IMG/VR virus record: IMGVR_UViG_2585427754_000004
DNA length: 64,000 nt
Source of the DNA: a virus
Lineage: Duplodnaviria; Heunggongvirae; Uroviricota; Caudoviricetes
Reading direction: 5' to 3' (one strand)
Numbering within the stretch: position 1 is the first letter of the stretch; each line of letters begins with the position of its first letter. The notes under the pieces are model-generated. The model did not search any database, was not told the origin of the DNA, and saw only the letters and a list, made by a program, of their open reading frames with translations. The position numbers were made by a program, and so were the translations under genes. Of the stretch, positions 635 through 57,884 are shown piece by piece.

Positions 635-1417
635 GTGCCAATTGTCGGTGTTCCCGGTTGGATTGGGTCTTCGGCTGTCAGTGTGACAGGCCAGAGATGG
701 ATGAGTGCAGCTCGAACGGCGGTGCAATTGTCTGCTGCTGGGAATATGTCTCAGTTAGCAGGTCGTTCTAAGGAAATTCAGTACAGCATCGGTGCGAATC
801 ATAACTACAACAAAGACACACTGATCAACTATTTAAAATCCCAGGGGGCGACGCCAGTCGTTGTTACCATTACAGGGGATCTGGTGTCGTCCAGTAGCGG
901 CGTGCCATGTTTAGATTTCCCGAGTTCACTTACCAACTCTTATATCAGCCTTGTAATCAACGCAGGTGTGACTGTCTATGGACGCGGTGGCAATGGTGGT
1001 AGTAACGCTGCCGGTGCTGCTGGTGGTAACGCAATTAATAATGGCATCGGTACACGCTTGCGTATTACGAATAATGGTGCAATCGCTGGAGGTGGCGGCG
1101 GCGGTGGCGGCGGTAACAGGGGTAAACTAATATTTGGCGGCGGCGGTGGTCGCCCATTCGGTGCTGGTGGGTCTTCCTCTCATATGAGTTCCGGTGCAAC
1201 TGCTGGTACTATTTCCGCTCCTGGTAAAGGATCTGTTGGTGAGGGGTCTCTTAGTGCATATACAGGCGGTTCGGGTGGTAATGTCGGTGCTGCTGGAGGA
1301 AGATGTAATACTCAAGGTAACGGTACAGAATATAACGGCGGAGCAGCTGGTAAAGCTGTTACTGGTAATGCTCCAACTTGGACTAAAGTTGGGGCAATTT
1401 ACGGCGCTCATGTGTAA
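635..1417 (+). CDS. Glycine-rich protein, candidate tail-fiber adhesin or host-range determinant
   Basis: Sits directly after the tail-fiber gene. Several poly-Gly tracts (GGGGGGGGGN, FGGGGGRPFGAGG) separate short variable segments, as in T2-type gp38 adhesins. Start uncertain: GTG at 635 follows AAGGAG by 7 nt; ORF track gives 578. Confidence 0.4.
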   Translation: MPIVGVPGWIGSSAVSVTGQRWMSAARTAVQLSAAGNMSQLAGRSKEIQYSIGANHNYNKDTLINYLKSQGATPVVVTITGDLVSSSSGVPCLDFPSSLTNSYISLVINAGVTVYGRGGNGGSNAAGAAGGNAINNGIGTRLRITNNGAIAGGGGGGGGGNRGKLIFGGGGGRPFGAGGSSSHMSSGATAGTISAPGKGSVGEGSLSAYTGGSGGNVGAAGGRCNTQGNGTEYNGGAAGKAVTGNAPTWTKVGAIYGAHV

Positions 1418-1479
1418 GTACTTACCTACCAAGTGTGGGCGTTTTATGATATAAAACCGCCATCCCGATTTGACGATTC

Positions 1480-1815
1480 ATGGAGGAAATAATGTCGAAC
1501 GAGATGGCAGGCGTAACGCCAGAGCAGGTAGAGCGCATTGCCGCTATCGTTGCGCGTGAAGTTGTCGGCAAATTAGGTAAGGAGTTGCGTGAGGAAATTG
1601 GCCAGGAGGTCAACGACCAGCTCAAAACCTACTTTGGCGATATGACGCCTTCGCAACACAGCATTCAGCACTCCAACCTGGACAAACTACTTAATCGGCT
1701 AGACGCCATCTCCAGCGGGTTCTTTGGCGGCATTATCTCAAAGATAACGTCGTTCCTGATTACCGCGCTGCTGCTGGGTCTGGCCGCTTATGGCGTGAAG
1801 AATGGACTGCAATAA
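1480..1815 (+). CDS. Small protein with C-terminal transmembrane helix (holin candidate)
   Basis: 111 aa with C-terminal hydrophobic segment ITSFLITALLLGLAAYGV; lies at the head of the lysis cassette. Confidence 0.3.
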   Translation: MEEIMSNEMAGVTPEQVERIAAIVAREVVGKLGKELREEIGQEVNDQLKTYFGDMTPSQHSIQHSNLDKLLNRLDAISSGFFGGIISKITSFLITALLLGLAAYGVKNGLQ

Positions 1816-1828
1816 CAGGAGATCAAGG

Positions 1829-6017: not shown

Positions 6018-6075
6018 GCCTGCTTCTGTATATATATAAATAATAAGTAACTTATTAAATATATACGGAAGCAGG
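6018..6075. repeat. AT-rich palindromic element of about 58 bp, copy 1
   Basis: GCCTGCTTCTGTATATAT ... ATATACGGAAGCAGG with AATAAGTAACTTATT at the centre; a near-identical element occurs at 51287..51345. Confidence 0.6.
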
Positions 6076-6182
6076 TCTTTTAAAAGACACCACCAGAACA
6101 AGTCCCTTCCGTTTCCACTTCCAAAAACTGCCACCAGTCGCTATCATCCGCTCATTGTGATAAGTAAGTAACTACCTACCAG

Positions 6183-6932
6183 GTGAGCCACATGAGCCAA
6201 ATCTTTTTCGATACCATCGACAACGACCAGTACGACTTCATGACAGAGTGGAATACCGCTGTTATGGACAAGTGGGTCGCTGAAAACATTGGTTTGTCGC
6301 GCTGTAAAGATGAGGCTGAACTCTTCGAGACGAAGTGGTTTGATTACCGCGACATGCATCCTCTGATGGCCACCTGTCTATTTACGGAGGCATACAAACG
6401 TCAGTACTCAAATATCATGCTGACGCACGGTCGCGAACACTTTGAAACAGCTCCGTTCACCACCGGGTTAAAACGCCTGCCTTATCAGGAGTTGTCGACT
6501 GCCAATAAAACGTCGCTATGGAAAGCACGCCAGTTTGCGGATCGCTATTGCTGCTCATACGACTACTTTATCTCCACCGTTCTTTCCGCAGCTGCACGAC
6601 GGCTGTGGGACAAGCTGCCGCGTCCGCAGCATTTGTGGCAGCCAGAACTGATTGAGATATTTGAAGATAAATTAGCCAGACGCGCAACAACCCGTCTGGA
6701 TGACTCTCTGGTTAGCTTTAAGCATATGGGAGACATGCAGTTCAACCCGATTCAGGAAAGCTATTTTGAGTGGATTCTGGAGCGTTTGCGCACCATCCCC
6801 CGCAGCAAGCGCATACGCGCAATTTTCTCCGCTATCTGGCTAATGGAAATCGTTCCAGAGCGCCTTATTTCCGCCCACTTTCCAGAAGAACTGGAAGAAG
6901 CACGGCGGTTTATTGATCCCCTATCTAATTAA
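6183..6932 (+). CDS. Hypothetical protein (immediately upstream of the helicase)
   Basis: 249-aa ORF with upstream TAAGTA palindrome motif; no recognisable motif. Confidence 0.35.
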   Translation: MSHMSQIFFDTIDNDQYDFMTEWNTAVMDKWVAENIGLSRCKDEAELFETKWFDYRDMHPLMATCLFTEAYKRQYSNIMLTHGREHFETAPFTTGLKRLPYQELSTANKTSLWKARQFADRYCCSYDYFISTVLSAAARRLWDKLPRPQHLWQPELIEIFEDKLARRATTRLDDSLVSFKHMGDMQFNPIQESYFEWILERLRTIPRSKRIRAIFSAIWLMEIVPERLISAHFPEELEEARRFIDPLSN

Positions 6933-9579: not shown

Positions 9580-9654
9580 CAAGTGCCGCTAAAATAAGTA
9601 GATGATTACTTATCTTTCTGTAAGAATACTTTCATCTGTTAGCTAGGAGTTGGT

Positions 9655-10431
9655 ATGAAAGACGAAATTCAGAAATTAGCCTGCGACATCATTGATAAAA
9701 CTGGTTTAGAAATCAGCGAGAGCAATCGACTAGACATCATTGAAAAAGCGGTAAAAACAGCAATGGATCATATCGCCACTCGTTTGGTCGAGATCCCGCT
9801 ACCGGGGCTACCTTATCTGAAGGTTAAGTTACACGTATGGGGTGAACCTTCTTGTGCACGGCGTTCTGCATTAGTTGTTTTTATTAGCAAAGAAAACCCG
9901 CTCAGTCTTAAAGTGCAGGTTGGTGCATGGATGGATGGCAAAGTGATCTACACAAATACCGTTTTTTGTCTTTCAAACGACGAAACTATTGAAGCGGCCA
10001 TTCAAGAAGCAGTTCTAGCAATGCGCAGCAGCGGTTTGATGAAGAATAACTACGAAGAGTACTTGCGTTCGATAAGTGGTGAAAAGACATTATCTCTGAA
10101 AGCAGATTTCGTTACCCCGAAAAACCTGTTGGAAGTCTTGCTTAATAAAGGGGCTAATGATGCCGTAAATGTAATCAGAGAGAGTGAGTATGCGTCTCTT
10201 TGCGACATGTGCAAAAGCCAGTTGGATCTGGTGCATATCGTTATTGATGCTGGGAAGGCATGTGATGGCGTAATGGCGGAATTTGCTTGGAAGGTGGTCA
10301 GGATTGCTAACGAATTACCGATGATAGAGCAAGAGGCCAAATCATACGCCACCAATCATGTCACAGAGCTTCTTGTCCCCTATCGCTTAGAAAGCAATCA
10401 GCGCAAGATGGTTAGCTGGGGAAGTTGGTAA
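9655..10431 (+). CDS. Hypothetical protein
   Basis: 258-aa ORF in the replication block. Confidence 0.3.
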   Translation: MKDEIQKLACDIIDKTGLEISESNRLDIIEKAVKTAMDHIATRLVEIPLPGLPYLKVKLHVWGEPSCARRSALVVFISKENPLSLKVQVGAWMDGKVIYTNTVFCLSNDETIEAAIQEAVLAMRSSGLMKNNYEEYLRSISGEKTLSLKADFVTPKNLLEVLLNKGANDAVNVIRESEYASLCDMCKSQLDLVHIVIDAGKACDGVMAEFAWKVVRIANELPMIEQEAKSYATNHVTELLVPYRLESNQRKMVSWGSW

Positions 10432-10486
10432 TCTCTCCGCGCGTCGTTTTTTACGCAAATAATGATAGGTAAGTACAAGATTATTT

Positions 10487-13097: not shown

Positions 13098-13875
13098 AAA
13101 CATCATGATAAGTATTTACTTACTTATCTTTTATGTATAAGATGACTTTGTTTTCGTTGAGACGCGACTGTTTGAACTTAAATACAAGTGCAAACGAAGA
13201 AGTCTATCTGGCAGTAGCCTAATAAGCCAAACACCAGCGAGGTCAGTTTCCAGCCTCGTTACCGAAATGGGACACACTGAGCGAGTGTGATTGCATAACG
13301 CAGGAGGGAACATTCATGTTCCCTCCGATGAAGTAACAGAATGGGCGGTTGGTATATTTTCAACTCCATATGACTCCCGGATTCTTAGCCACTGACCGCC
13401 CATCCTGTTACGTCATTTTGTTCAATTATGTCGTTTATACTGGGTTAAAAAGCGGCGACGTAGCCCGGCTGGTATGGTTAGCCAGCACACAACGTTGAGG
13501 CCATTACATTTTTATCAATTCTAAGGTTCTATTCACAGAGATACCGGCGAGCGTTGATATGTAACATGTTGGGCAAACATTCAATCGGAGTAGTGGCCTC
13601 AACGTTGTGAAGACAGGATTGTTGTGTAGGTTTAACCACTGTTGCCATTGGTGCCTGTTTTCACAACAAATGATTCCATACATCACATTGTATAAATTAC
13701 AAAGTAGGTGCTGTCCTCAGAAACATCATCTACTTAAAGATTTTGCCTTCTACTATTGAGCGAAGTCGAAAGCGTCTGGCACTAACGAAAAGTGCAAGTA
13801 GCGGTGCGTTTCCTGGCAGAAACTAAACCGTCGCGATTGGCACTGTTGAGTAATAAATACTGGCAGTGCTGAATT

Positions 13876-13950
13876 GATGGTGTAGCTCAGCGGTAGAGCA
13901 GTTGGCTGTTAACCAACTGGTCGGTGGTTCGAATCCACCCACCATCGCCA
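13876..13950 (+). tRNA. tRNA-Asn (anticodon GTT)
   Basis: Cloverleaf folded by hand: acceptor GATGGTG/CACCATC, anticodon loop CTGTTAA, T-arm GGTGGTTCGAATCCACC, discriminator G then CCA. Confidence 0.85.
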
Positions 13951-13955
13951 ATTTA

Positions 13956-14042
13956 GGGGAGTTAGTCCGTAGGGGCAGCGGGGTAGACTGTAAATCTACT
14001 GTCATTGCGACTCGGGTGGTTCGACTCCATCACTCCCCACCA
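13956..14042 (+). tRNA. tRNA-Tyr (anticodon GTA), type II with long variable arm
   Basis: Acceptor GGGGAGT/ACTCCCC, anticodon stem-loop GTAGA-CTGTAAA-TCTAC, T-arm GGTGGTTCGACTCCAT, CCA encoded. Confidence 0.8.
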
Positions 14043-14046
14043 AATT

Positions 14047-14122
14047 GCCGGTTTAGCTCAGTTGGTAGAGCGTCTGCCTTGTAAGCAGGATGTCAGCGGT
14101 TCGATCCCGTTAACCGGCACCA
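14047..14122 (+). tRNA. tRNA-Thr (anticodon TGT)
   Basis: Acceptor GCCGGTT/AACCGGC, D-arm GCTC ... GAGC, anticodon loop CTTGTAA, T-loop TTCGATC, CCA encoded. Confidence 0.75.
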
Positions 14123-14442
14123 ACACAACAGGTAAGAGCATTGGGCGAATCGGCGATACTGACCCACAAGCCCGTAAATCGATAGAGTCAGACCAGTGCT
14201 CTTACCGTTGTGAGGAAGTGCAGCTCTTTGAAGCAACCAGAAGATAAGCATCTGGCTTCACAACACAACGATAAGATCATTACGGTTAATCGTCGTTCAT
14301 GTGCACAATGACTGGTCGAAAGGTAGTGATCTTACCGTTGTGATGAATGCACAGGCTGATGTGCCGCAACTACAGTAGTGCGCGCTTTGCGGGGCTTGCT
14401 ACAACCCTGTGTCGGAGTTCAGCACCGACCATCACAATAGCT

Positions 14443-14529
14443 GGAGAGTAGGGAGCATGGTGCTCAAGCGGTCTTGAAAACCGTCCCATTGCGCAAGCGA
14501 TGATGGTTCGATTCCATTACTCTCCGCCA
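14443..14529 (+). tRNA. tRNA-Ser (anticodon TGA), type II
   Basis: Acceptor GGAGAGT/ACTCTCC, anticodon loop CTTGAAA, long variable arm, T-loop TTCGATT, CCA encoded. D-arm is atypical. Confidence 0.7.
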
Positions 14530-15371: not shown

Positions 15372-15553
15372 TTCCCACCAAACTCACTCCCATTTCCCTT
15401 AAAATTCAAAAAACAACGTCAAAATGATTCCATACCTACTATGTATGGAATCATTAGTAAAAATGAGTTACTTTTACTCTTGATCCTATAAGAATCTATG
15501 CCTAATATACTGTTTACTTATACAGTACATCGGCGTAACTCGGTGATTGTCAT

Positions 15554-16657
15554 ATGAAAAATAGCTTTGACAGAGCACGCGCTGCGGAGAACACCTCAAA
15601 AGAGGCGATTGAGTATCTCGAAAGAGCATCTCAAATGCAGGCCGTTATGATCTCCCAGGTTAGCAATGACATGAGATTCTCGGACGCATTCATGTTATTC
15701 ACTCGCTTATCTCTGCTGATAACCAGACGTCGGCCAGAGATCGCTGTTCATTGTATTTTGATACATGTTTTGCCGCACATTGCCGATGTAAAAGTAAGTG
15801 ATATTAATAGGTTCATGGTGAACCAACTGGTCAACCCACTAATACTGGATGGCAAAATTGTTATGGGCCGCCGCGTTTTCTCTCTGATGAAGCAGTTCCT
15901 TAGCTGGTGCGCCTTCCAGGGGATGATAGACGTGTCACCGTTAAACGATATGTCACTTAACAAAGTTGCCGGTGGCGCAAAGCCCACGCCCCGCGAGCGG
16001 AAGCTGACTGACGCAGAGGTATGGGTGTTCTGGAATATATGGGACTACTTCAATGTGTGCGCTGGTACAAAATGGGCGGCCAGACTGTGTCTTGTATCAG
16101 CAAGACGACCTGACGAAGTACTGCGGGCTAAAAAAAGTGAGTTCAATCTTAAGCGTGGGGTTTGGAATCAAGGCAAGAGGAACAAATCTGCCCGTGAGCA
16201 TTCTCTGCCTTTAAGCTCATTAATGCGCACTTGTATTGAAGAGTTGTTCGAATATGGTAAAGACAGCCAGTGGCTCGTGCCTTCGAATAAAAAAATCGGG
16301 AAAGACCTTCCTATGTCTAAAGTGGCAATAGCCCAGGCATTACGTCGTATTCTGGAACGACCAGAACTGATGGAGCTTGAGCCATTTACACCCCGAGATT
16401 TGCGCCGTACTGCGCGTAGTTACTTCCCAGCATTAGGCATAAGCCAGGAGGTATCACGTAAAATCATGAACCACAGTCTTGAGGGGATAGATCGGGTCTA
16501 CGACCGTCACGATTATATGGACGAGATGCGAGACGCCTTAGAAAGTTTCTCGACGTACATCGCATCAATCGTAGAGCAACCGGATTTAGACGAAATTGAC
16601 CACAAATTTAAGGGAGATCGTCTATCAACAGAGCTTATTCGTGTAAATTTTTCATAG
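15554..16657 (+). CDS. int: Tyrosine recombinase / integrase
   Basis: C-terminal catalytic-domain pattern with Arg (RRPDEV), His and RDLRRTARS, then HS ... VYDRHDY carrying the putative Tyr. N-terminal start uncertain. Confidence 0.7.
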   Translation: MKNSFDRARAAENTSKEAIEYLERASQMQAVMISQVSNDMRFSDAFMLFTRLSLLITRRRPEIAVHCILIHVLPHIADVKVSDINRFMVNQLVNPLILDGKIVMGRRVFSLMKQFLSWCAFQGMIDVSPLNDMSLNKVAGGAKPTPRERKLTDAEVWVFWNIWDYFNVCAGTKWAARLCLVSARRPDEVLRAKKSEFNLKRGVWNQGKRNKSAREHSLPLSSLMRTCIEELFEYGKDSQWLVPSNKKIGKDLPMSKVAIAQALRRILERPELMELEPFTPRDLRRTARSYFPALGISQEVSRKIMNHSLEGIDRVYDRHDYMDEMRDALESFSTYIASIVEQPDLDEIDHKFKGDRLSTELIRVNFS

Positions 16658-17038
16658 AGACTTTATGGCCTCAACAACCTTTTGTGATGCGCCTTTCTCT
16701 TTACCGAATCGCTCGTTATATGCAGCAAGAACCTGTTTTTCGTCCTCGTTAAGAGGAGCAGTGCCTTCTTTGTATAAAAATGCTGCGAGTTCGGGTTGGC
16801 GTTCTTCCAGCACCATCATCATAAGACGACTTGGCTCAATGCCCAGCGCCAGCGCCAACGGACGAACCTTATCGATAGGCAAAGGAATTTTGCCACTTTT
16901 AATTAAAGAAAGGTTGTTGGCATTTTTGTAACCAATAAGTCTGGCTATTTGGGCCTGACTCATAGGTGAGGATTCAATCAACCCTGCGATAAAAGCAGCG
17001 TAGCGACTTTCTATAAATTCAATCTTGTTATCAGACAT
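16652..17038 (-). CDS. HTH (XRE-family) DNA-binding regulator
   Basis: Helix-turn-helix MSQAQIARLIGYKNANNLSLIKSGK; convergent with the integrase; palindromes in its upstream region. Confidence 0.5.
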   Translation of the reverse strand: MSDNKIEFIESRYAAFIAGLIESSPMSQAQIARLIGYKNANNLSLIKSGKIPLPIDKVRPLALALGIEPSRLMMMVLEERQPELAAFLYKEGTAPLNEDEKQVLAAYNERFGKEKGASQKVVEAIKSL

Positions 17039-17289
17039 GGTTACAACCTTTGCGCGTTCAATTCTCTCTGGTAAGTGCTTACCGATATTACATCAAAGGT
17101 TAGGGTTGTAAAGCTATTATCATTTTTTTCGATAGGCACTTAAAAGACCGGTTAAAGGCCATTGCACGGAGAAAAATTAGCCCAAAATAGGTAAGAAAAT
17201 CAACTTGCATATGATATGAATGTATTCAGTATTGATACAAATTTTAGTAGTATTCCTTACCATAGTATAAGTTAGAATGGATTGATTGA

Positions 17290-17502
17290 ATGAAAACCAC
17301 TATTTCCAGCCTAATCGCTCTTGAGATCGGACACGTACAGAAATTAGCTGATGAGTGTGTAGCTGACATCCTCACCGATCTACCGAATGAGCAGATTCAG
17401 GTTGGTGTGAATGACACAACTGGATTTATATTCGAACTTAACAACAAACGCTTCACGCTTCTCAATACCGGCTCCGGGTCTTTAGCCGTCAGAATCTGTT
17501 AA
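17290..17502 (+). CDS. Hypothetical small protein
   Basis: 70-aa ORF followed by a hairpin. Confidence 0.25.
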   Translation: MKTTISSLIALEIGHVQKLADECVADILTDLPNEQIQVGVNDTTGFIFELNNKRFTLLNTGSGSLAVRIC

Positions 17503-19709: not shown

Positions 19710-19804
19710 ACAAAACAGCCTTAACGATAAGTAACCACTTACGATAGATAATGATATATTTATATAAGAAGTTGAACGCTCATTAGAAAACAAAGGAAAA
19801 ACGC

Positions 19805-32260: not shown

Positions 32261-32315
32261 TCGCCTATTCATAACTAACAAAATAAGTAAACACTAACCA
32301 CAAAAGGAAAAACAC

Positions 32316-34987: not shown

Positions 34988-35059
34988 CTATAGTGGTTTT
35001 TCTCCTCTCTATAGTGGTTGCTTTGCTCCCTATAGTGGATTATTCGCTCTCTATAGTGG
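34988..35059. repeat. Four direct iterons (CTATAGTGG core) at exact 21-bp spacing upstream of repA
   Basis: Core starts at 34988, 35009, 35030, 35051. Confidence 0.7.
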
Positions 35060-35173
35060 ATATCGATCATGTCTGAAGGCAGATGGCACAACGGTTTGAG
35101 GTTGGCGGGGATCTTATTGGGTCTTTATGGGTCTCTTTGGTTCTCTTTGTGATCTGAATTACTGGATCGGGCC

Positions 35174-35182
35174 TGTGGATAA
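35174..35182 (-). promoter_or_regulatory. DnaA box (TTATCCACA on minus strand)
   Basis: TGTGGATAA on the plus strand is a perfect 9-mer consensus; two 8/9 matches nearby (35221..35229, 35548..35556). Confidence 0.5.
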
Positions 35183-35345
35183 AAATCAGAGGATTTCAAG
35201 AACAGGTAACTCTACTCTTCTGTGGATATTTAAGGACATAAGAATCATGACTAAGAGTAGAGTTTAAAATATATCTATTTATATCAGTATGTTAATGAAG
35301 AATTAAGTCATTAAGTTATCCATAAAAGACAATGTGCTCTACTCT

Positions 35346-35440
35346 CTACAGTGGATATATACAGCTCTCCAGAGTGGTTGTTTTACTCTTCATAGCGGTT
35401 ATTCAGCTCTCTACAGAGGTTTCTTTGCTCTCCATAGTGG
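35346..35440. repeat. Second array of five iterons at about 21-bp spacing
   Basis: CTACAGTGG, CAGAGTGG, CATAGCGG, CTACAGAGG, CATAGTGG cores at about 35346, 35369, 35390, 35411, 35432. Confidence 0.6.
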
Positions 35441-35483
35441 ATGGCAACACCCTTTCAGACCAGTAACCGCAACGGCTAGAGGC

Positions 35484-35541
35484 GATCGGGGATCTCTTTG
35501 GATCTTCTATTTGATCTTACTTGGGATCTCTTATTTGGATC
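35484..35541. promoter_or_regulatory. Cluster of six GATC sites in 58 bp (candidate Dam/SeqA-regulated origin region)
   Basis: GATC at 35484, 35491, 35501, 35513, 35525, 35538; a smaller cluster at 35065..35168. Confidence 0.5.
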
Positions 35542-35642
35542 TATCCAGTGGATAACTGGGATAAGTAAAACAGGCAAATGCAGATTAAGGTATGCCTAAT
35601 GAGTTATCGTAGCATCGGCCAATAACTACTGAAAAAACGATT

Positions 35643-36287: not shown

Positions 36288-36541
36288 CCCTCCAGATCGT
36301 ATATTGGCGTAGATAGAATCTACGCCCCCTCAAAATAGCTCTCATAGCGTTCTACAGTGATCCTGTCTTATTTTTAGTCATACAGACAAGCAAAGTTGCG
36401 CCACGATAAATAGGTATATACTTACTTATAAATTTTGTATATTAAGGCGCTCGTTTCATTCCTAACATACCGTTATGCATAGTTGTTTACCTCCTCATTG
36501 CTCTTAGAATTTGTATCAAAATAACCACAAAGGAAAAACAC

Positions 36542-41085: not shown

Positions 41086-41118
41086 TTTCATTGATAGGTA
41101 AGTGCTTATCTATTAACA

Positions 41119-41149
41119 TGGGCCACTATATTTAGTGGCCCTCTTTATT
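41119..41149 (+). terminator. Rho-independent terminator
   Basis: GGGCCACTA-tattt-AGTGGCCC followed by TCTTTATTT. Confidence 0.6.
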
Positions 41150-41158
41150 TGGTGATAC

Positions 41159-44794: not shown

Positions 44795-45664
44795 ATGAAC
44801 TTTACCAAACTGACTGACCACCTGAAACTTGCCACCGATCGTCTCATTGGATTTAAGCCAGAACCATATGAGTTGCATGAAGGTCATGGTGTAGCTACTG
44901 AAAGTATTTACAAGATGGTCGATCAGTTTCATGAACTCTTCCTGCATCCGAGACGCGTTATGCCGACACCAGAGCTGCTTCGTCTCCGTGCAAGCCTGAT
45001 TCATGAAGAAGCTGTAGTGGAAGGTATTCCAGCCGCAATGAATGGGGATATTGAGCAACTGCTGGATGCAATGGCCGACTTTTTATACGTTGGTGTTGGT
45101 ACGATGGTCGCCATCAAAGGTGGTATTTCTACCGGCATGACCTATTACACGCAGGAACAGAGCATTGATCGCTTTATGCAGACAATTTTTGTGCCCGGTA
45201 ACACTGTTTTCGATGATATGGCAATGCCATTTCAGGAAGCTCGTGAGGCGTCATGTATGCTCGAAGAGCTGGCAGATAAACTTGAGAACAAGACTGTTAA
45301 GGATTCTGAGCTGATTCAGGAACTGCGCCGTGTCATGAACAAAATCTATGTGGCGTGCATGATGACCTATCGACTGGCTGATTTCCTCGGTATCAATGTA
45401 GTCGAGCTGGTTGGAGAAATTCATCGGTCTAACATGACAAAATTATGGCCTGCTGATGTAGAGGAACGTCGCCAGGCTGTGGCCAACTGCAAATACGACT
45501 CTTCAGACCTGGGATTTCGCCATGCTGATGGTACCGATAAGATGATCGGTTTTCGAATTTCCGATGGAAAGATTCTGAAGTCTCCAACCTATAGTGATGT
45601 CGATTTATCCTCCTTTGTTGAGCAAGCTAAAGCCTCAGCAATGTACGGAATGATCAAAAAATAA
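44795..45664 (+). CDS. Hypothetical protein, possible all-alpha NTP pyrophosphohydrolase (MazG-like)
   Basis: Segment EEAVVEGIPAAMNGDIEQLLDAMADFLYVGVG resembles the MazG/HisE metal-binding helix pair; weak. Confidence 0.3.
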   Translation: MNFTKLTDHLKLATDRLIGFKPEPYELHEGHGVATESIYKMVDQFHELFLHPRRVMPTPELLRLRASLIHEEAVVEGIPAAMNGDIEQLLDAMADFLYVGVGTMVAIKGGISTGMTYYTQEQSIDRFMQTIFVPGNTVFDDMAMPFQEAREASCMLEELADKLENKTVKDSELIQELRRVMNKIYVACMMTYRLADFLGINVVELVGEIHRSNMTKLWPADVEERRQAVANCKYDSSDLGFRHADGTDKMIGFRISDGKILKSPTYSDVDLSSFVEQAKASAMYGMIKK

Positions 45665-45732
45665 TTGTAGGTAGTTATCTATCTGTGTATATTTAACATG
45701 CGTAATAAAACTCTGGAATGACTATTCGTTTT

Positions 45733-45758
45733 GGTGGCCTATGGCCACCATTTTTTTA
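45733..45758 (+). terminator. Rho-independent terminator
   Basis: TGGTGGCC-tat-GGCCACCA followed by TTTTTTT. Confidence 0.7.
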
Positions 45759-45834
45759 TCTGTCTGGTCTTGTTCTCTCAATGAATGTAAACTCACACGA
45801 TGAATAAGTAATTACTTATCTTTGTGAGGTTTTT

Positions 45835-50488: not shown

Positions 50489-50671
50489 CGTCCCCCTACT
50501 GAAAATAAAGCCCATAGAGAGCTTTATAGTGCTGGGTAAGCCAATCACATATCCAGCACCACAAAAACGCGCCAGAGAGCTTCTCGTTTGCATTTCTGGC
50601 GCGTTTTATTTGATTGCCAGACATAAAATCAAATGCAAAAATAGGTAATCACTTACCTATCGAGAAAGACG

Positions 50672-51427: not shown

Positions 51428-51682
51428 ATGAACCACTTTAAGGAAACCAACATGTCATACCCGACTAATGTCGTTGCGCTCGTAGAGAGCGATTTTCTGG
51501 CCCAGGCTCGTGAAATGATGAAAGATCGTGAGCAGGCTTTCAACTTGTACGAGTGGGCAATTAAGTGCTTACATCTTGGCGAGCATCGCGAACTTGTTGA
51601 ACAGCTTTTAGGTGAGTTGATCAATGAGGTGTTTGCCTTGAATGTTCAACTACATGGTCGAGAAAATAATCAATCACAATGA
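51428..51682 (+). CDS. Hypothetical protein
   Basis: 84-aa ORF preceded by GGAAACC. Confidence 0.3.
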   Translation: MNHFKETNMSYPTNVVALVESDFLAQAREMMKDREQAFNLYEWAIKCLHLGEHRELVEQLLGELINEVFALNVQLHGRENNQSQ

Positions 51683-52263
51683 TAGATAAGTACAAACTAT
51701 TCATAAAGTGAATTGTAAGTGCTAAGATCTGATAGTTTCCAGTCGTAGACTGGAGGCTCGACCTGATGGGTGGGGGTAAGCGTCACTGGCGTCAGGTTTA
51801 AAAAAGCTCACTACCAGCGTAGAACCGGTGCCGTATAGGTGTCGGGGAAGGGGGAACCAAAGTGAGCAGAGACAAGGGTCACTTTATGATTGTCGAGTCT
51901 GGGGTGTTTCGAGAGGTTGAATCCAGTACTCCCCTTCATAAAGTGTGGGAAGATCTCGGTTCTGGGGTGCTGTCATCCATAACTTCCCAAGTCTAAGCTG
52001 GCAGTAGACTTAGACCATAGCTTTTCAGGTTATGAAACGACCAGGTTGGTGAGGAATTTTATACTCACCTCCCTGGGAGAGTATTACCTGAAAAGACAAC
52101 CTCTCACTTCGTTCGAGGTGAACTTCACTCACTTCGTTCGTTCAGTTCAGGTTTATAAAAACCTGTTCTGGGAAGTAATTTGTTTATTTTAATAATTATT
52201 AACACGCACGCGTGTGCGCACGCGCGAGGAAAAATCGGCGCGGCGCTTGATTCAGGAGTTTAT
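51683..52263. other. 580-bp non-coding region with G-rich blocks, a 13-bp direct repeat and an alternating GC palindrome
   Basis: No convincing ORF. CTCACTTCGTTCG at 52103 and 52128; ACACGCACGCGTGTGCGCACGCGCG at 52201..52229; GTCTGGGG repeats. Confidence 0.4.
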
Positions 52264-52854
52264 ATGACGACGAAGACACCAGCCCGATCGCAAGCAAAAA
52301 CTCGCAAAAAAGACAAAAACAAAAATTCTCCCCGCACCAATCCCACAACGCCTGTCGTAGAGTTCAATCCCCAGCTCAAAACCGTGAAAATCTTTAGTGA
52401 TGGCTCTTGCCTTAAAAATCCGGGTGGCCCGGGCGGTTACGGTATCGTTCTCCAGTATCGTGGTGAGGAACGCGAGTTCTCAGATGGTTTTCATAGCACC
52501 ACCAATAACCGCATGGAGATGATGGGGGCACTTATCGGGCTGGAGCGTTTGAAATATCCATGCAACGTTATTTTGCACTCTGATAGCCAGTATCTGAAAA
52601 ACGGCATGACACAGTGGATGAAATGGTGGAAACGCAATGGATGGATGACTTCTGACAAAAAACCGGTAAAGAATGTTGATCTGTGGAAGCGTCTGGATGA
52701 GGCCGCAAGTCGACATAATGTTCGCTGGAAGTGGGTTAAAGGTCACGCCGGGCATCGTGAAAATGAAATATGTGATCGACTCGCGAAGATCGCAGCTTTT
52801 TCAGCAGCAGATATGCCTCACAAGAAAGATATTGGTTTTGTTTATAACAAATAG
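52264..52854 (+). CDS. rnhA: Ribonuclease HI
   Basis: FSDGSC ... GGPGGYG ... HSDSQY ... [18 protein letters not shown] matches RNase H catalytic motifs. Start at MTTKT; ORF track begins at 52180. Confidence 0.8.
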
Positions 52855-53002
52855 TAAGTAAGTGTTTACCTATCATTTTAAATCATGTATCTTATCGGCG
52901 TCAGGATGACAATGTGTCGGTAAGACACAGTTCCAGGATGGAACGAGAAAGGCGGCTGGCAATCGCCAGCCGCAACTCTTTCTGACACTGGATGGAGTCC
53001 AC

Positions 53003-55418: not shown

Positions 55419-56035
55419 TTATGTTCGGGATGTCAATTACTCAATCAGATGGAAGTTTGTGGATGAGTCCAGAATTTACTCCGCAAAATCTGATTAATAA
55501 AGGGACAATGTCTACATCTAAAGGTTCTGTTTTTCAAACATCAATCCCATCAAACAAATCATGTTTTTTTTTCATAAAAAGCAGTAATAAGGCGAACATG
55601 ATGTTTATTCATGAGCATAGTAACGGATACAATGCTCTCAGATTGCATCAGGTAAATGGTAGCCCCGGAACAATAACAGTTTATGCTTTTTCTGATATGG
55701 TGTTACCACATTCTGGCTATGGCATTGCCATGTATAACAGCGCAGGCGCAATGGTGTATCACGGTGAGATGATGCCCCTTGATGCGAAACTTATCACTAT
55801 TTCTGACCCTCAATTTACAATAGATATGGGGTATCCATGTGCGGTAATGCCTGCTATGGTTGGGGTATATAACTATAGACGAACCGATTACGACAGACCT
55901 GTCTATGTAACAATGACAGGTGCAACTGGAAACCAAGTATATAACGGTCAATGGTATTCCGGTAATGTCACATGGGATATTAAGAAGATTTATACAAACA
56001 AAATTCTGGTGATAAATACCTCCAAGTATGATTAG
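55364..56035 (+). CDS. Hypothetical aromatic-rich protein in low-GC segment (contains T9 tract)
   Basis: 223-aa ORF; T9 at 55564..55572 encodes CFFF. Confidence 0.35.
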   Translation: MVKFIYGAWFLHIHILGIIMFGMSITQSDGSLWMSPEFTPQNLINKGTMSTSKGSVFQTSIPSNKSCFFFIKSSNKANMMFIHEHSNGYNALRLHQVNGSPGTITVYAFSDMVLPHSGYGIAMYNSAGAMVYHGEMMPLDAKLITISDPQFTIDMGYPCAVMPAMVGVYNYRRTDYDRPVYVTMTGATGNQVYNGQWYSGNVTWDIKKIYTNKILVINTSKYD

Positions 56036-56138
56036 CCAATGCCTTTATTTGAACGATTGCCTGTTTATTTCTATTTAGTACCTTTTCATTTTTGAAATAA
56101 TTGCACCATTAAACAAATCACTTCTTAATGGTGCAATT

Positions 56139-57824
56139 ATGAATACAGCCCTTTCCATCATCGACGATGCCAACTCAAACACTGCTATCGACTATCGGCA
56201 GGAAATGAACGTCATCCACGAAATTGTGGCCGAGTGCGAGAAAGAGATCGCCTTCATGTATCAGGTACACGACTTCGTTTATGGCGACGAACGCCACAAC
56301 ATGATTAATCGCCTGCTGAGACTAAACCATCGACCAGATGAAGATCGCTCGCGTTTAAATCGAGGTTGGTTGGATAAAGTCGATCTGGAATGGGTGAAAC
56401 AGAATATTTGGGCCGAGTACTGGAGTAAGGTCACGGACATGACTAACGTTTTGCTGATCATGCCAGCTTCCCGTCGAGATGAGTGGCGCGAGCAGTTTAT
56501 AGAGGGCAAACAGGAAGTCATCAAAACTGACAGAACCGGCTACCAGATGAAGGTTAAAGAGTTCGTTGGTGTACCGGAGTTCAAAGCAGAAACGGTCATA
56601 CCCACGATGCTTAATTTGCTGAATGACAGGCACAAATATCTCTCTGAGCGCGTGTATGGCTTGTTTAAGGCGCTGAGTCCTGCGCACAAGACAAATAAGA
56701 CAAACGGTTTCAGCGAGCGTCTGATAATCGCTGACTGCATTTCTGATTTCTGGCGGGACAGCGTTAGCGTGAACTATCGCAAAGAGGACTACATCGACGA
56801 TCTGCGTGTCTTGCTTCATTTCTTCGCGCACAAAGAATTTATTACCATCAACCGCACTGCTGAGGTGCTATCAGCTGCGTATCGAGCAAACGACTGCCAG
56901 ACCGGTGACTGGATGAACGTCGATGGAAATCTGATGCGCGTGAAGATGTTCAAGAACGGCAACGTTCACTTTGAAATACATCCTGACGTGGCCTGGAAGT
57001 TGAATGAGGTGCTGGCTTACAGTATGCCTGCTGCAATCCCCGCGCCATGCCGAACTGCGCCAAAAACACGGGCACCAAAGCAGTTCGGGTTAATCCAGAA
57101 GACGATCTCCGTGCCGGTTCGCACTGCGCTTCGTGACGGGCGATTGAGCAAAGACAAAGGCGTATGGTACTTCTCTGATTCAGCTCTCCAGAAGTCGCAG
57201 GTGGAAGAGCTTGAGCGCACACTGAGCTTCATTGGCGGCGTGCAGGAGAAAAAGCACTGGCAGTTCCCGTATGACATCGGCCATACGCTAAATACGATTG
57301 TGGCTACCGGTTTAATACCGGATACAAAATCACACCAGTTCTACCCTACCCCACGCTTGATTGCTGAGTACGTTGCCAGAGCCACTGAATTGAAGCCTGG
57401 TGAGAAGCTGCTGGAGCCTCAAGCCGGACGTGGGGATCTTCTGGCCTATATTAACGCCGATCTGGAAGATGTTACCTGCATAGAAATCGCACCTCTCTTC
57501 GCTGATATCCTGCGTGGAAAAGGGTATACGAACACGATTTGCTGCGACTTCATAAAGTGGTCTGAGGACAACGCAGGTTATCAGTTCGACAAAATCGTTA
57601 TGAACCCGCCGTACTCGCTTGGTCGTCATAGAGAGCACACGCTGGCTGCGCTGGGGCATCTGAAAGTCGGCGGGCGTCTTGTAGCAGTATTGCCGGGCAC
57701 TGCGCCAATACTGGACTGGATGACGATGGATAATTACGTTTATGCCAGAGGGAAGTCGTTTACCAACGAGTTTGAAGACACAGGGATCACAGTCAGCGTA
57801 TACGTTTTCAAACGCGTTAAATGA
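56139..57824 (+). CDS. Large protein with C-terminal SAM-dependent N6-adenine methyltransferase domain
   Basis: Motif I LEPQAGRGDL followed by motif IV MNPPYS in the C-terminal third; about 370-aa N-terminal region of unknown function. Confidence 0.5.
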   Translation: MNTALSIIDDANSNTAIDYRQEMNVIHEIVAECEKEIAFMYQVHDFVYGDERHNMINRLLRLNHRPDEDRSRLNRGWLDKVDLEWVKQNIWAEYWSKVTDMTNVLLIMPASRRDEWREQFIEGKQEVIKTDRTGYQMKVKEFVGVPEFKAETVIPTMLNLLNDRHKYLSERVYGLFKALSPAHKTNKTNGFSERLIIADCISDFWRDSVSVNYRKEDYIDDLRVLLHFFAHKEFITINRTAEVLSAAYRANDCQTGDWMNVDGNLMRVKMFKNGNVHFEIHPDVAWKLNEVLAYSMPAAIPAPCRTAPKTRAPKQFGLIQKTISVPVRTALRDGRLSKDKGVWYFSDSALQKSQVEELERTLSFIGGVQEKKHWQFPYDIGHTLNTIVATGLIPDTKSHQFYPTPRLIAEYVARATELKPGEKLLEPQAGRGDLLAYINADLEDVTCIEIAPLFADILRGKGYTNTICCDFIKWSEDNAGYQFDKIVMNPPYSLGRHREHTLAALGHLKVGGRLVAVLPGTAPILDWMTMDNYVYARGKSFTNEFEDTGITVSVYVFKRVK

Positions 57825-57884
57825 TAGGTAAATACTTACTTAATTTGTGTAAGAATGTAATAACTAAACGATAAGAGAAAACAC

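Follow-up and report, generated by a model that had tools for sequence, protein, structure and literature searches.

The 64,000-nucleotide stretch analysed here (the window) belongs to an SSU5/pHCM2-type phage-plasmid and shares 97% identity with Escherichia phage Cyrano (pLF82). Dispersed along it are about 19 copies, weaker ones counted, of a 22-bp palindrome whose consensus half-sites are GATARGTAAGT and ACTTAYCTATC (GATARGTAAGTACTTAYCTATC in the scan query). The copies are listed in Table 1 together with the gene and the promoter of a candidate repressor and with neighbouring terminators.

Table 1. Palindrome copies and associated features in the window (strand given where one is assigned; matches are to the 22-bp consensus)
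Position	Strand	Feature	Match	Context
1409–1430		Palindrome CATGTGTAAGTACTTACCTACC	18/22, 19.9 bits	Between tail-fibre gene end and holin gene (1480); orthologue before holin gene in SSU5 and K. oxytoca
6159–6180		Palindrome GATAAGTAAGTAACTACCTACC	19/22	Upstream of helicase operon (gene 6183–6932); orthologues SSU5 33599, K. oxytoca 7786
9593–9614		Palindrome AATAAGTAGATGATTACTTATC	16/22, 23.9 bits	3′ of primase gene, upstream of gene 9655
10464–10485		Palindrome GATAGGTAAGTACAAGATTATT	16/22	Right arm degenerate; 5/11 arm positions complementary
13107–13128		Palindrome GATAAGTATTTACTTACTTATC	19/22, 31.8 bits (window best)	Upstream of tRNA cluster region
16652–17038	−	Gene for XRE/Cro-CI-type HTH protein, 128 aa		Converges on integrase gene and overlaps its end
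17066–17087		Core-only palindrome GGTAAGTGCTTACC (17070–17083)	15/22	Between repressor gene and divergent gene
17085–17112	−	Predicted sigma-70 promoter of repressor gene, TTTACA, 16 nt, TAATAT		From promoter scan
19726–19747		Palindrome GATAAGTAACCACTTACGATAG	15/22	Upstream of cobS/MoxR-like gene (19805); orthologues SSU5 45123, K. oxytoca 25523
27135–27156		Palindrome AATAAGTAAGTACTGATCTATC	20/22	Upstream of gp32-like SSB gene (27240)
30621–30640		Intrinsic terminator		Just upstream of the 30656 palindrome
30656–30677		Palindrome AATGTATAAGCACTTACTTATC		Inside near-consensus promoter upstream of membrane protein gene (30709)
32282–32303		Weak palindrome AATAAGTAAACACTAACCACAA	14/22, 15 bits	Better copy at the orthologous place in SSU5, 57745
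32609–32630		Palindrome TATAAGTTAGTATCTACCTATC	18/22	Directly abuts ATG of gene 32631, with no leader space; 22-mer identical at SSU5 58073
36409–36430		Palindrome AATAGGTATATACTTACTTATA	17/22	Upstream of sbcD-like gene (36542); orthologues in SSU5 and K. oxytoca
41093–41114		Palindrome GATAGGTAAGTGCTTATCTATT	20/22	Inside promoter upstream of nrdA (41159)
45662–45683		Palindrome TAATTGTAGGTAGTTATCTATC	16/22	At mazG-like gene end
45732–45750		Terminator		48 nt downstream of the 45662 palindrome
45799–45820		Palindrome GATGAATAAGTAATTACTTATC	18/22 in two registers	Contains perfect 16-mer ATAAGTAATTACTTAT; upstream of thyX (45835); orthologues SSU5 72510, K. oxytoca 52527
50640–50661		Palindrome AATAGGTAATCACTTACCTATC	19/22	11 nt upstream of adenine methyltransferase gene (50672)
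51681–51702		Palindrome GATAGATAAGTACAAACTATTC	16/22	Starts a ~480-bp stretch without long ORF; SSU5 counterpart better, AATCGGTAAGTACTTACCATTT at 78708
52853–52874		Palindrome AGTAAGTAAGTGTTTACCTATC	18/22	3′ of RNase H-like gene; SSU5 orthologue GATAAGTAAGTATTTACCTATC, 35.2 bits, highest of all
57823–57844		Palindrome GATAGGTAAATACTTACTTAAT	18/22	Upstream of Ead/Ea22-like gene (57885); last copy in window

Abundance, placement and conservation of the palindrome

With a threshold of at least 16 of 22 matches to the consensus, 16 sites were found in the whole window, all of them intergenic. Dinucleotide shuffles of the intergenic sequence (the window has 8.8 kb of non-coding DNA) gave a mean of 0.13 such sites and a maximum of 2, and whole-window shuffles gave 0.42, confirming the recurrence that the sequence-only reading had noted. 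Two further sites with 15/22 matches (17066 and 19726) bring the total to the 'about 18' copies of that reading. All 15 positions that it named carry the motif, although a better register lies a few bases off at 27135, 30656, 36409 and 45799; its list lacked the copies at 32609, 45662 and 51681 and the weak one at 32282. Scanned independently, the pattern ATARGTA-N6-TACYTAT gave 17 matches with up to two mismatches, a number that none of 100 shuffles reached (0.47 expected), and the 8-mer ATAAGTAA/TTACTTAT ranked second for over-representation in the window (15 occurrences against 2.25 expected). Information content falls to background outside motif positions −1 to 24. No bit-scored site lies in the 58–64 kb part of the window, and the complete Cyrano genome (108 kb) has 28 copies of at least 15 bits.

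The copies had been described as exclusively intergenic, which applies to the 16 window sites but not to Cyrano, where one conserved copy lies within the 3′ end of the portal gene. The spacing of 20 to 60 bp before start codons, also claimed earlier, did not hold: the distances range from 1 to ~200 bp, with 478 bp between the 51681 copy and the next crude ORF call. A perfect palindrome reported near 45805 was confirmed and occupies the 16 bp from 45804 to 45819.

The palindrome is kept at orthologous intergenic positions, with diverged flanks, in SSU5 and in K. oxytoca pCAV1015-111, the helicase of which is 68% identical. Acinetobacter pCFSAN093707, with a helicase 37% identical, has ~30 copies of ATTATT-AGTAAGCGCTTACT-AATAT, and the core AGTAAG-NN-CTTACT is common to the enteric members and Acinetobacter. 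The motif is thus conserved across four lineages. Gene order is likewise kept from E. coli to Acinetobacter; gene content between the copies differs among relatives. This difference, the position of copies at gene-block junctions and the resemblance of the 8-bp arms around a 6-bp centre to recombinase core sites would suit repeats that promote exchange of blocks, or that are targets of an integrase-like recombinase, and that have no role in transcription. We regard this as very improbable, since 28 active sites would scramble a replicon whose order has been kept over such distances, and since the strand-specific promoter context and the copy at the repressor start described below would be left unexplained. 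Any use as module boundaries would here come second to a regulatory function, an order of importance also proposed for the mycobacteriophage stoperators.

Type of site and promoter context

To distinguish a DNA site from a transcribed hairpin, we compared the two arms in 67 sites. Mean arm complementarity was 66%; at each of the 11 mirrored positions it equalled the permutation expectation, compensatory changes were seen at 0 of the 11, and R5 and Y18 vary independently. Because the arms do not covary, the palindromes appear, on this substitution pattern, to be protein-type DNA sites and not hairpins. A role in RNA, as a processing site, stabiliser, terminator or target of an FljA-like protein, is already disfavoured by this result and seems to us scarcely tenable. 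It could call on the copies in transcribed spacers of long co-directional operons, the T-rich sequence 3′ of some copies and the FljA-family protein that the element encodes (Pfam Flag1_repress, 1e-80), but the arms in the window are complementary at only 3 to 9 of 11 positions, the stems are AT-rich without a conserved T-run, and no Rfam match was obtained at any palindrome site.

The palindromes lie in a directional, sigma-70-like context. The best promoter score overlapping the palindrome was higher on the plus strand, which is the gene strand, than on the minus strand at 56 of the 67 sites (p = 8e-9); 11 bits or more were reached at 22 sites on the plus strand and at 2 on the minus strand, and intergenic positions without a palindrome had no strand bias (6.2 vs 6.4). 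In a promoter scan of 60 kb, 6 of the 18 plus-strand matches overlapped or abutted palindromes, at 5 sites. Promoter matches on both strands in three 20-kb blocks numbered 13, 24 and 16, fewer in every block than in shuffles (32.7, 29.0 and 31.5). At many sites the predicted promoters are weak, with scores of 3.5 to 9. Thus, the earlier proposal of an element-specific promoter class stood as far as the directional promoter context is concerned; no evidence pointed to a new polymerase or sigma factor dedicated to the element, and neither a sigma factor nor an Lpa homologue was found in the enteric members.

Site by site, the palindromes cover the spacer, the −35, the −10 or the +1 of the predicted promoters. 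The 30656 copy lies in TTGAAA-17-TATCAT (10/12 in the scan), the 27135 copy in the spacer of TAGATA-17-TATCAT, and the 41093 copy fills the spacer of TTGATA-17-TAACAT, after which comes the hairpin GGGCCACTATATTTAGTGGCCC with a T-run; the order promoter, hairpin, nrdA is kept in SSU5, K. oxytoca and Acinetobacter. The portal copy is associated with TTGAAA-17-TATGAT, and the −35 and −10 of the 30656, 41093 and portal promoters are conserved in three lineages; the 30656 hexamers and the 27135 arrangement are kept in SSU5 and K. oxytoca. At 13107 the right arm supplies TTTACT as −35, with TAAGAT as −10 at 17 nt, also kept in both relatives. At 50640, the left edge of the palindrome adjoins the end of TTGCCA-17-AAAAAT (with a TG motif), so that the palindrome would span about +1 to +20; this promoter too is kept in SSU5 and K. 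oxytoca. The best plus-strand promoter at 45662 is TTGTAG-17-TATATT. Elsewhere a −10 follows the palindrome: the extended −10 TGTAAGAAT lies 4 nt downstream of the 9593 copy (window and SSU5) and 3 nt downstream of the 57823 copy, at equal distance in SSU5; a conserved −10-like element, ATATAAGA, lies 17 nt downstream of the 19726 copy; and 16 nt downstream of the 1409 copy there is a conserved −10 resembling TGnTATAAA, which places the centre of this copy near −41.5. Taken together, the centres fall near −19.5, −22.5, −30 to −37, ~−41.5 (holin), −43.5 and +2.

An activator needs a fixed position relative to its promoter, and this variable register favours operators over activator sites. The experimentally defined C1 operators of P1 have the same spread, with Oref in the spacer, Ossb at +1 and Oc4/Olpa over the −35.

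Several features nevertheless recall the late promoters of P1, where a −22 box acts with Lpa and SspA, and on this model the palindromes would be elements at which a dimeric activator, encoded by the element and acting in the lytic cycle, brings the polymerase of the host to promoters that have a −10 and a poor −35, leaving the repressor in control of a few early promoters only. The P1 late promoters consist of AAGTNACTT, 4 nt and a −10, and their −22 box resembles the motif centre here (AAGT-ACTT; AAGTACTT), a likeness that counts against the operator reading. At 16 of the 67 sites, a −10-like hexamer begins 7.5 or 10.5 nt past the centre, a convincing −35 is absent at many sites, and Acinetobacter copies often have CTTACTATAAT without a conserved −35. 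In three lineages the centre of the holin copy falls near −41.5; its distance from the predicted −10 is conserved and would be a classical one for activation. Immunity operators tend to diversify, and deep conservation is seen more often in signals of activators or late promoters; conservation of the core from Enterobacteriaceae to Acinetobacter is therefore unusual for operators and would fit a basal activator–promoter pair. The candidate activator is the 88-aa winged-helix-like phrog_900 protein encoded just upstream of terS, the place of lpa in P1, with which the element also has Cra and TciA/B in common. This protein, which could be an alternative reader of the palindrome, has a conserved counterpart in K. 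oxytoca and a weakly conserved one in Acinetobacter; one of its helices, KQSIQFSIRALIKKGLVEK, is conserved, and its gene is off in the lysogen (PMC9928086, S1 table).

We consider the activator, the main rival reading, unlikely all the same. No −10 is conserved at a fixed distance from the palindrome, tblastn found no Lpa homologue in four genomes (SSU5 to 100 kb), and 0 of 9 candidate proteins tested matched the Lpa PHROG. For several spacer copies, the −35 and −10 of the surrounding promoter both match at 5/6 with 17 nt between them, so that an activator should be needless, yet these promoters are silent in the lysogen. The operon of the putative activator itself starts with a palindrome (Cyrano 105106), which would make bootstrapping awkward.

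The candidate repressor and expression in the lysogen

The 128-aa protein has a weak match to Pfam HTH_19 and belongs to phrog_8 ('transcriptional regulator'). Its AlphaFold model has a five-helix HTH domain of the Cro/CI fold, with C.AhdI, C.BclI, 434 Cro, lambda cI and the SPC32H repressor as nearest folds. Related proteins are encoded by 961 plasmids of the group, among them pHCM2, pMT1 and Acinetobacter plasmids, and the recognition-helix motif N-x-N-x-x-S-x-I is kept as far as Acinetobacter. On pHCM2, pMT1/pFra of Y. pestis and a plasmid of K. pneumoniae, both hexamers of the predicted repressor promoter and the block TGGTAAGTRCTTACYGATATTACA are conserved. The core-only palindrome lies 1 nt downstream of the −10 and covers about −5 to +9. 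This copy on the predicted +1 is in a repressive position, which favours operators and speaks against an activator. Upstream of its repressor gene, K. oxytoca has weaker copies at 22960 and 22984, and Acinetobacter has them at 78256 and 78346. We propose that the 128-aa protein is the reader of the palindrome. Phage SSU5, described as virulent (PMC5427195), lacks the integrase and repressor genes, which counts for the operator reading. It retains excellent palindrome copies, which fits a recent deletion and also fits sites for another protein.

In published RNA-seq of the Cyrano lysogen, the median expression value is 9.8, with parA and repA at 50 to 133 and the repressor gene at 96, ~10-fold over background; CYRAN_123, the other conserved small DNA-binding candidate, is at 7.8 (PMC9928086, S1 table). 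Genes downstream of the 30656, 41093 and portal promoters have values of 5.0 (CYRAN_56, at the detection floor), 7.6 and 10.9, and the gene downstream of the 27135 orthologue is at background (9.1). Expression drops across the orthologues of 6159 (CYRAN_30, 55, to CYRAN_31, 6), 10464 (44 to 9) and 36409 (CYRAN_64, 31.5, to CYRAN_65, 7.5); CYRAN_81, a small ORF in the 51681 stretch, is at 117 (same table). The silence of near-consensus promoters that carry palindromes favours the operator reading.

The same data bear on a dual use, in which one protein represses at most copies and activates at the few near −41.5, like lambda cI at PRM, or in which the repressor shares the site with a lytic Cro-like factor. 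The mixed registers, including the conserved holin position, would suit it, as would the nearest folds, since C-proteins and lambda cI both repress and activate, and a small divergent gene occupies the Cro position (17290–17502 in the window, also in Acinetobacter). The holin value is 8.6, so that the lysis genes are silent and the lysogenic protein does not activate them (PMC9928086, S1 table), and no conservation of the Cro-position protein from one lineage to another was detected. We hold this explanation to be quite improbable.

A proposed dispersed operator system

The sequence-only reading had left the choice between a promoter class and the operator of a dimeric regulator. Each half holds in part, and the evidence favours the operator, with the protein-type palindrome, the variable register, the copy on the repressor +1 and the silent near-consensus promoters all on its side. 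We consider it moderately probable that the palindromes are operators of the integrase-adjacent 128-aa repressor and work like the C1 operators of P1. Under this mechanism, a repressor dimer would bind the two half-sites, each copy lying within or immediately next to the core elements of a sigma-70 promoter of the host that drives a lytic block, and the blocks controlled would be those for replication and recombination, nucleotide metabolism, virion structure and lysis. Simple promoter occlusion leaves unexplained several copies that abut a start codon or are followed at once by an intrinsic terminator, as after the capsid gene and before nrdA; copies at tight junctions without a promoter would probably block read-through from interspersed plasmid-maintenance genes. 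We infer the 128-aa protein as the binder, the predicted promoters as real and the junction copies as roadblocks.

No description of the motif was found in the searchable literature. In the lysogenic (plasmid) state, occupied copies would block RNA polymerase at these promoters, and the weaker core-only copy over the repressor +1 would make the repressor gene negatively autoregulated. Once repressor activity is lost, as might follow SOS induction, all blocks would be released together. Most likely, then, one small repressor silences the whole virus in its plasmid state through these palindromes.

Occurrence of the palindrome in the window and in related elements

In a megablast comparison, the segment at 17-25 kb of the window was 97.5% identical to Escherichia phage Cyrano (OV696614; the pLF82 phage-plasmid of E. 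coli LF82) and ~80% identical to Salmonella phage SSU5 and Klebsiella phage-plasmids. By the Cyrano annotation, the end of the tail-fibre gene and a MinD-like gene bound the window, which holds genes for lysis, toxin-antitoxin functions and parA, a helicase-primase-ligase group, tRNAs, an integrase, an HTH 'putative repressor', cob-like, dnaE, recombination and repA genes, and genes of nucleotide metabolism. Nearly all genes listed from this annotation lie on the plus strand.

The sequence-only reading had proposed that a near-palindromic site recurs in the intergenic DNA. We scored all window positions against the 22-bp consensus GATARGTAAGTACTTAYCTATC and found 16 separate sites matching at least 16 of 22 positions, every one in non-coding DNA, as compared with 0.13 in dinucleotide shuffles of the 8.8 kb of intergenic DNA and 0.42 in shuffles of the whole window. 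In a separate shuffle test, the pattern ATARGTA-N6-TACYTAT, with up to two mismatches, gave 17 matches versus 0.47 expected, and ATAAGTAA/TTACTTAT was the second most over-represented 8-mer of the window. For k-mer enrichment a second-order Markov background worked, whereas a maximal-order background was uninformative because it absorbs the signal. The motif was present at all 15 positions listed in that reading, and these counts, positions and 8-mer enrichment confirm the recurrent palindrome as an observation. An iterated weight matrix added copies at 32609, 45662 and 51681, a weak one at 32282, and two sites matching 15 of 22 positions (17066 and 19726). The window has 19 copies, scattered through 1.4-57.8 kb without clustering in one immunity region. 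The accompanying estimate that they typically lie 20 to 60 bp upstream of start codons was only roughly right, since the distances span 1 to ~200 bp; the 51681 copy is 478 bp from the next crude ORF call.

A second enriched word, CACTATAG/CTATAGTG, was rejected as a part of the palindrome; it belongs to the RepA iterons, which flank repA, form an ordinary plasmid origin and explain the top 8-mer of the window (CACTATAG, 10 versus 0.67 expected). LexA, Fur, TyrR and NrdR boxes and LacI-family operators were rejected as the identity of the motif on sequence and spacing.

The 108-kb Cyrano genome contains 28 sites of at least 15 bits by the weight matrix. They are spread over about 85 kb, one per gene block, and precede both replication and structural genes. 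The 85-105 kb interval has no site of 15 bits or more and one weaker site (14.8 bits) at 96685. SSU5 has copies in orthologous gaps. The K. oxytoca plasmid pCAV1015-111 (helicase 68% identical) bears 26 copies with unalignable flanks, and Acinetobacter pCFSAN093707 (helicase 37% identical) has ~30 copies of ATTATT-AGTAAGCGCTTACT-AATAT at the same kinds of junction, among them the gaps between terL and portal and behind the capsid gene, and the region ahead of nrdA. The core common to enteric and Acinetobacter copies is AGTAAG-NN-CTTACT. Among viral contigs, matches to an exact 20-mer pattern fell mostly on contigs of 60 to 113 kb. Copies occupy short intergenic gaps that include promoter-less places, namely the terL-portal gap in four lineages and the post-capsid gap, and two copies (32609 and 50640) abut start codons. 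We found no description of the motif in the searchable literature on SSU5, Cyrano and phage-plasmid promoters or operators.

Two further features of these elements were noted. Chi sites (GCTGGTGG) are enriched, with 14 versus 2.7 expected in the window and 37 versus 5.9 in the K. oxytoca relative. The best palindrome copy, 13107, is followed by tRNA genes, which number four at this place in the window, three in Cyrano and one in SSU5.

Coordinates, promoter hexamers and lysogen readings of the features discussed. Positions are those of the window unless a genome is named; readings are normalised read counts for the Cyrano lysogen from the LF82 transcriptome table, overnight LB cultures (PMC9928086, S1).
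Feature	Position	Strand	Reading	Details
XRE/HTH repressor gene (CYRAN_45)	16652-17038	minus	96	128 aa; converges on integrase gene and overlaps its end
Predicted repressor promoter	17112-17085	minus		TTTACA-16-TAATAT; promoter scan
Predicted promoter before membrane-protein gene				TTGAAA/TTGAAA/TTGATG-17-TATCAT across lineages, orthologous sites
Predicted promoter before nrdA				TTGATA-17-TAACAT/TACTAT across lineages, orthologous sites
nrdA			7.6	
nrdA-leader hairpin	41120-41150			GGGCCACTATATTTAGTGGCCC and T-run; between palindrome-bearing promoter and nrdA
CYRAN_56			5.0	30656 promoter
SSB			9.1	
CYRAN_4			10.9	portal-internal copy
CYRAN_123			7.8	phrog_900 winged-helix-like protein
parA operon			50 to 89	
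repA	33844-34899	minus	133	
repA iterons	33400-33840 and 34940-35560			CTAYAGTGGWT; scattered copies on both sides of repA
Tandem repA iterons	34988-35060			four; 21-bp period
LexA box at integrase gene	15508-15527			perfect, 20 bp; TACTGT-N8-ACAGTA
LexA box at S24-peptidase gene	62501-62520			perfect, 20 bp; TACTGT-N8-ACAGTA
S24-peptidase-domain-only protein			148	129 aa
cspA thermoregulator 5' UTR	25018-25436	minus		full length; Rfam, 186 bits
Stretch without long ORF	51700-52180		117	~480 bp; Cyrano equivalent, 44-aa ORF CYRAN_81
Compact palindrome variant	6036-6062			AATAAGTAACTTATT; ~100 bp upstream of 6159 copy
tRNA genes	13876-14529			Asn, Tyr, Thr, Ser
Structural/lysis-region sites	Cyrano 2019, 3526, 5442, 9017, 15528, 22447, 26656			weight matrix, at least 15 bits
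Head of parB-to-terS operon	Cyrano 105106			weight matrix, at least 15 bits
CYRAN_114, FljA family	Cyrano 9781-10302			outside window
Sigma-70-family protein	pCFSAN093707 32337-33002			221 aa; weak Pfam Sigma70_r2
Median, all Cyrano genes			9.8	

Half-sites and placement on predicted promoters

The palindrome might act as RNA, as a hairpin, or as DNA. We examined its arms in 67 distinct sites pooled from Cyrano, SSU5 and one K. oxytoca plasmid. At the 11 mirrored positions, complementary pairs were as frequent as expected from permuted arms; the sole nominal excess, at positions 5/18 (p = 0.04), was lost after correction for 11 tests. The R at position 5 and the Y at position 18 combine as A-T, A-C, G-C and G-T in near independence, and arm complementarity averages 66% over the 67 sites, ranging from 3 to 9 of 11 in the window copies. 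No Rfam family was found at palindrome sites. In the profile of sites the arms are AT-rich and a conserved T-run is absent. A structured RNA or intrinsic terminator was thus rejected. Because arm pairing stays at the permutation level and Rfam has no family here, selection acts on the sequence of each half-site rather than on base pairing, as expected for a site read by a dimeric DNA-binding protein. Intrinsic terminators lie within 70 nt downstream of the palindrome at 10 of 97 sites and upstream at 7, and there is therefore no general palindrome-terminator rule.

The hairpin between the palindrome-bearing promoter and nrdA keeps its place in SSU5 and K. oxytoca, and in Acinetobacter with a different hairpin sequence. 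It looks like a leader terminator or attenuator, and the enteric version is also NrdR box-like. Elsewhere in the window, a full-length cspA 5' UTR indicates that a cold-shock protein gene, together with its regulatory leader, is part of the element.

Matches to the -35/-10 consensus are rarer than in shuffles in all three 20-kb blocks (13 versus 32.7, 24 versus 29.0 and 16 versus 31.5), clearly so in the first and third. Over 60 kb, 6 of the 18 plus-strand promoter-scan hits lay on or beside palindromes (27135, 30656, 32609 twice, 41093 and 50640). As the unsymmetrised profile of the 67 sites mirrors itself, the motif is symmetric, and the two strands therefore provide an internal control for promoter scoring. 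At 56 of 67 sites, the gene strand gave the higher of the two best sigma-70-like scores overlapping the palindrome (Wilcoxon p = 8e-9), and scores of at least 11 bits occurred at 22 sites on the plus strand versus 2 on the minus strand. The corresponding plus- and minus-strand scores were 6.2 and 6.4 at palindrome-free intergenic positions, and 4.4 and 4.8 at coding positions. At orthologous sites, the flanking hexamers of the predicted promoters are kept across lineages. The overlap of the sites with lytic-gene promoters was seen for predicted sigma-70-like promoters only, with strong strand bias.

Such promoters could be activated or repressed through the palindrome. On the first account, which we consider unlikely, the palindrome would not be an immunity operator but an undescribed and ancient class of lytic promoter, extending from Enterobacteriaceae to Acinetobacter through the SSU5/pHCM2/pMT1 supergroup and akin in logic, perhaps in origin, to the -22 box of P1. 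Its activator would belong to a new family, not Lpa-like, with the phrog_900 protein (88 aa, encoded upstream of terS) as one candidate, and this one factor would switch on replication, structural and lysis genes while shutting the repressor promoter by binding at its start site. The motif centre, AAGTACTT, is similar to the box of the P1 late promoters, AAGTNACTT-N4-TAnnnT, and in three lineages the holin copy has its centre near -41.5; the spacing from palindrome to -10, however, is not fixed. The predicted -10 starts at motif position 19 (10 sites), 22 (6 sites), -2 (7 sites), 30 to 36 (12 sites) or elsewhere, and the information content over 132 aligned positions revealed no -10 or -35 at a fixed distance in the enteric elements or in Acinetobacter. 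Which part of a predicted promoter the palindrome occupies thus differs between promoters: it is the spacer in some, the -35 or the start site in others. While many sites lack a -35, as an activator-dependent class would allow, several have good -35 hexamers, and the palindrome sits in the spacer of complete predicted promoters. The conservation of the motif is far deeper than is usual for immunity operators, a point on the side of the promoter class.

The XRE candidate repressor, other candidate regulators and expression in the lysogen

The 128-aa XRE protein, a Cro/CI-type HTH protein, is our candidate reader and candidate repressor. One base after its predicted -10 stands GGTAAGTGCTTACC, which places a core palindrome at about -5 to +9 of the predicted promoter, a repressive position that speaks against the activator account. 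At protein identities of 57 to 66%, pHCM2, a K. pneumoniae plasmid and Y. pestis pFra/pMT1 keep this promoter/core block, so that the element-encoded candidate repressor, expressed in the Cyrano lysogen, has a core site at its own predicted promoter in four plasmid lineages. In K. oxytoca and Acinetobacter, imperfect copies precede the homologous gene. The family was found in 961 plasmids of the supergroup, nearly all on contigs of ~100 to 116 kb, and although overall identity drops to 38%, the helix N-x-N-x-x-S-x-I-x-x-G is kept between E. coli and Acinetobacter. Fold prediction covered the repressor. The AlphaFold model (mean pLDDT 77; 86 to 89 over residues 11-80) has a five-helix Cro/CI-type domain followed by C-terminal helices, with C.AhdI, C.BclI, 434 Cro, lambda cI, HigA and the SPC32H repressor as its nearest folds. 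PDB sequence searches with the repressor and the phrog_900 protein gave nothing useful. Cyrano is inducible by ciprofloxacin. SSU5, which PMC5427195 describes as virulent, is without the integrase and repressor genes.

As for other regulators, the activator account gains from the conserved winged-helix-like protein, which occupies the place that lpa has in P1. A homologue of Lpa itself was not found by tblastn against Cyrano, SSU5 (first 100 kb), K. oxytoca and Acinetobacter (best E = 0.03, to an unrelated gene), and none of nine tested candidate proteins matched its PHROG, phrog_1704. Pfam detected no sigma factor or RNA polymerase among 29 element proteins (20 of them from window coordinates). 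The Acinetobacter plasmid encodes a sigma-70-family protein between a MoxR-like gene and dnaE; no counterpart was detected in the enteric genomes, namely Cyrano, SSU5 and K. oxytoca. Outside the window, the FljA-family protein CYRAN_114 (Pfam 'repressor of phase-1 flagellin', 1e-80), kept in SSU5 and K. oxytoca, has an Hfq-like C-terminal stretch; from its sequence, it could be an RNA-binding regulator acting on host flagellin.

Two LexA boxes were also found. One overlaps the -10 of the predicted integrase promoter (TTGATC, 17 nt, TAATAT), and the integrase gene converges on the repressor gene and overlaps its 3' end; the other is 17 nt upstream of the gene for the S24-peptidase-domain-only protein, which is strongly expressed in the Cyrano lysogen. 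Their placement suggests that the switch takes an SOS input, perhaps by transcription running antisense into the repressor gene.

In the lysogen, genes behind the best palindrome-bearing promoters are at or near background (readings of 5.0-10.9 versus the median of 9.8), and expression drops over palindromes behind expressed genes from 55 to 6, from 44 to 9 and from 31.5 to 7.5 (PMC9928086, S1). Since near-consensus promoters are silent, a repressor is needed, and the palindrome is the only conserved element over them. Its reader must exist in lysogeny, a requirement that suits the XRE protein but not the phrog_900 protein. The stretch that in Cyrano holds CYRAN_81, with a reading 12 times background, begins shortly behind a palindrome and may encode a lysogeny-expressed small RNA or small protein.

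Comparison with known systems and implications

In both P1 and the present elements, phage-plasmids of ~100 kb, one repressor-type site is scattered at many lytic-function promoters, here predicted ones, and the region of the repressor gene itself also bears sites. The C1 repressor of P1 is not known to be related to Cro/CI proteins. Its operators are asymmetric 17-mers (ATTGCTCTAATAAATTT), whereas we find a 22-bp palindrome of unrelated sequence with a candidate reader of the Cro/CI type. In the annotated P1 record, from which the P1 features were taken, C1 operators lie in the spacer (Oref), at +1 (Ossb), over the -10 (OrepL) and over the -35 (Oc4 and Olpa), and the palindromes are spread likewise. 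P1 separates early, C1-controlled genes from late, Lpa-controlled ones, whereas here one motif stands before both replication and structural genes.

The P1 late promoters (a -22 box, AAGTNACTT, and a -10; dependent on Lpa and host SspA) share with our sites an AAGT/ACTT inverted repeat just upstream of the -10, before phage-plasmid genes for morphogenesis and lysis, and LPs, AAGTTACTTATC, is near the right half of the palindrome. The P1 box, however, has 9 bp with one central base, sits near -22 at a fixed 4-nt gap from the -10 and dispenses with a -35, whereas the palindrome has 22 bp, no central base, no fixed distance, scattered registers and, in several cases, a good -35. Its copies also precede early-type genes and the repressor gene. 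An AT-rich stretch of the window holds a compact variant, with half-sites one base apart, that shows the exact P1 -22 box pattern.

The stoperators of mycobacteriophage L5 and Cluster A are asymmetric 13-mers, strictly oriented relative to transcription, whereas the motif here is symmetric. Hosts and repressor families (for that of gp71, see PMC6550527) are unrelated. The likeness is in number, ~25 to 30 repressor sites per genome, and in placement, in short gaps of long co-directional operons, promoter-less gaps included. A bound repressor that halts the elongating polymerase would silence the prophage, and by analogy the terL-portal and start-codon-abutting copies would fit this idea. Lambdoid Cro/CI operators and the C-protein boxes of restriction-modification systems are likewise palindromes for dimers of the five-helix HTH fold predicted for the XRE protein, with autoregulatory copies at the regulator's own promoter. 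Those systems cluster 2 to 6 sites in one or two control regions, whereas the present sites are dispersed over ~85 kb.

The need for a repressor, the registers resembling those of P1 C1, the copy at the repressor's own start site and the presence of the reader in lysogeny together lead us to favour, with modest confidence, the view that the palindromes are dispersed operators of the XRE repressor. Binding at its own start site would allow autoregulation, and the promoter-less junction copies are probably roadblocks that would insulate lytic blocks from interspersed maintenance genes. Neither these operators nor an activator-dependent promoter explain the copies that immediately precede a terminator, which stand behind the capsid gene and ahead of nrdA. 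The proposed mechanism belongs to a known kind, that of the P1 C1 operators and mycobacteriophage stoperators, but differs from them in the site, the family of the candidate reader and the host range.

Clinical Enterobacteriaceae commonly carry SSU5-like phage-plasmids, among them pHCM2 of S. Typhi, pMT1/pFra of Y. pestis and resistance plasmids of E. coli and Klebsiella, and these phage-plasmids have distant relatives in Acinetobacter. We found no account of their silencing or lytic switch in searchable papers. The motif provides a testable map of control points, consisting of ~28 sites per genome, a single candidate repressor with an autoregulatory site at its own promoter, and two nearby LexA boxes that could tie control to the SOS response. 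Annotation of promoters and operons could benefit from it in more than 900 sequenced plasmids. If the XRE operator reading holds, these elements would be the second Gram-negative system, after P1, in which a prophage is silenced through dispersed operators, and the motif suggests how their induction, hence the spread of resistance genes by them, might be triggered or blocked.
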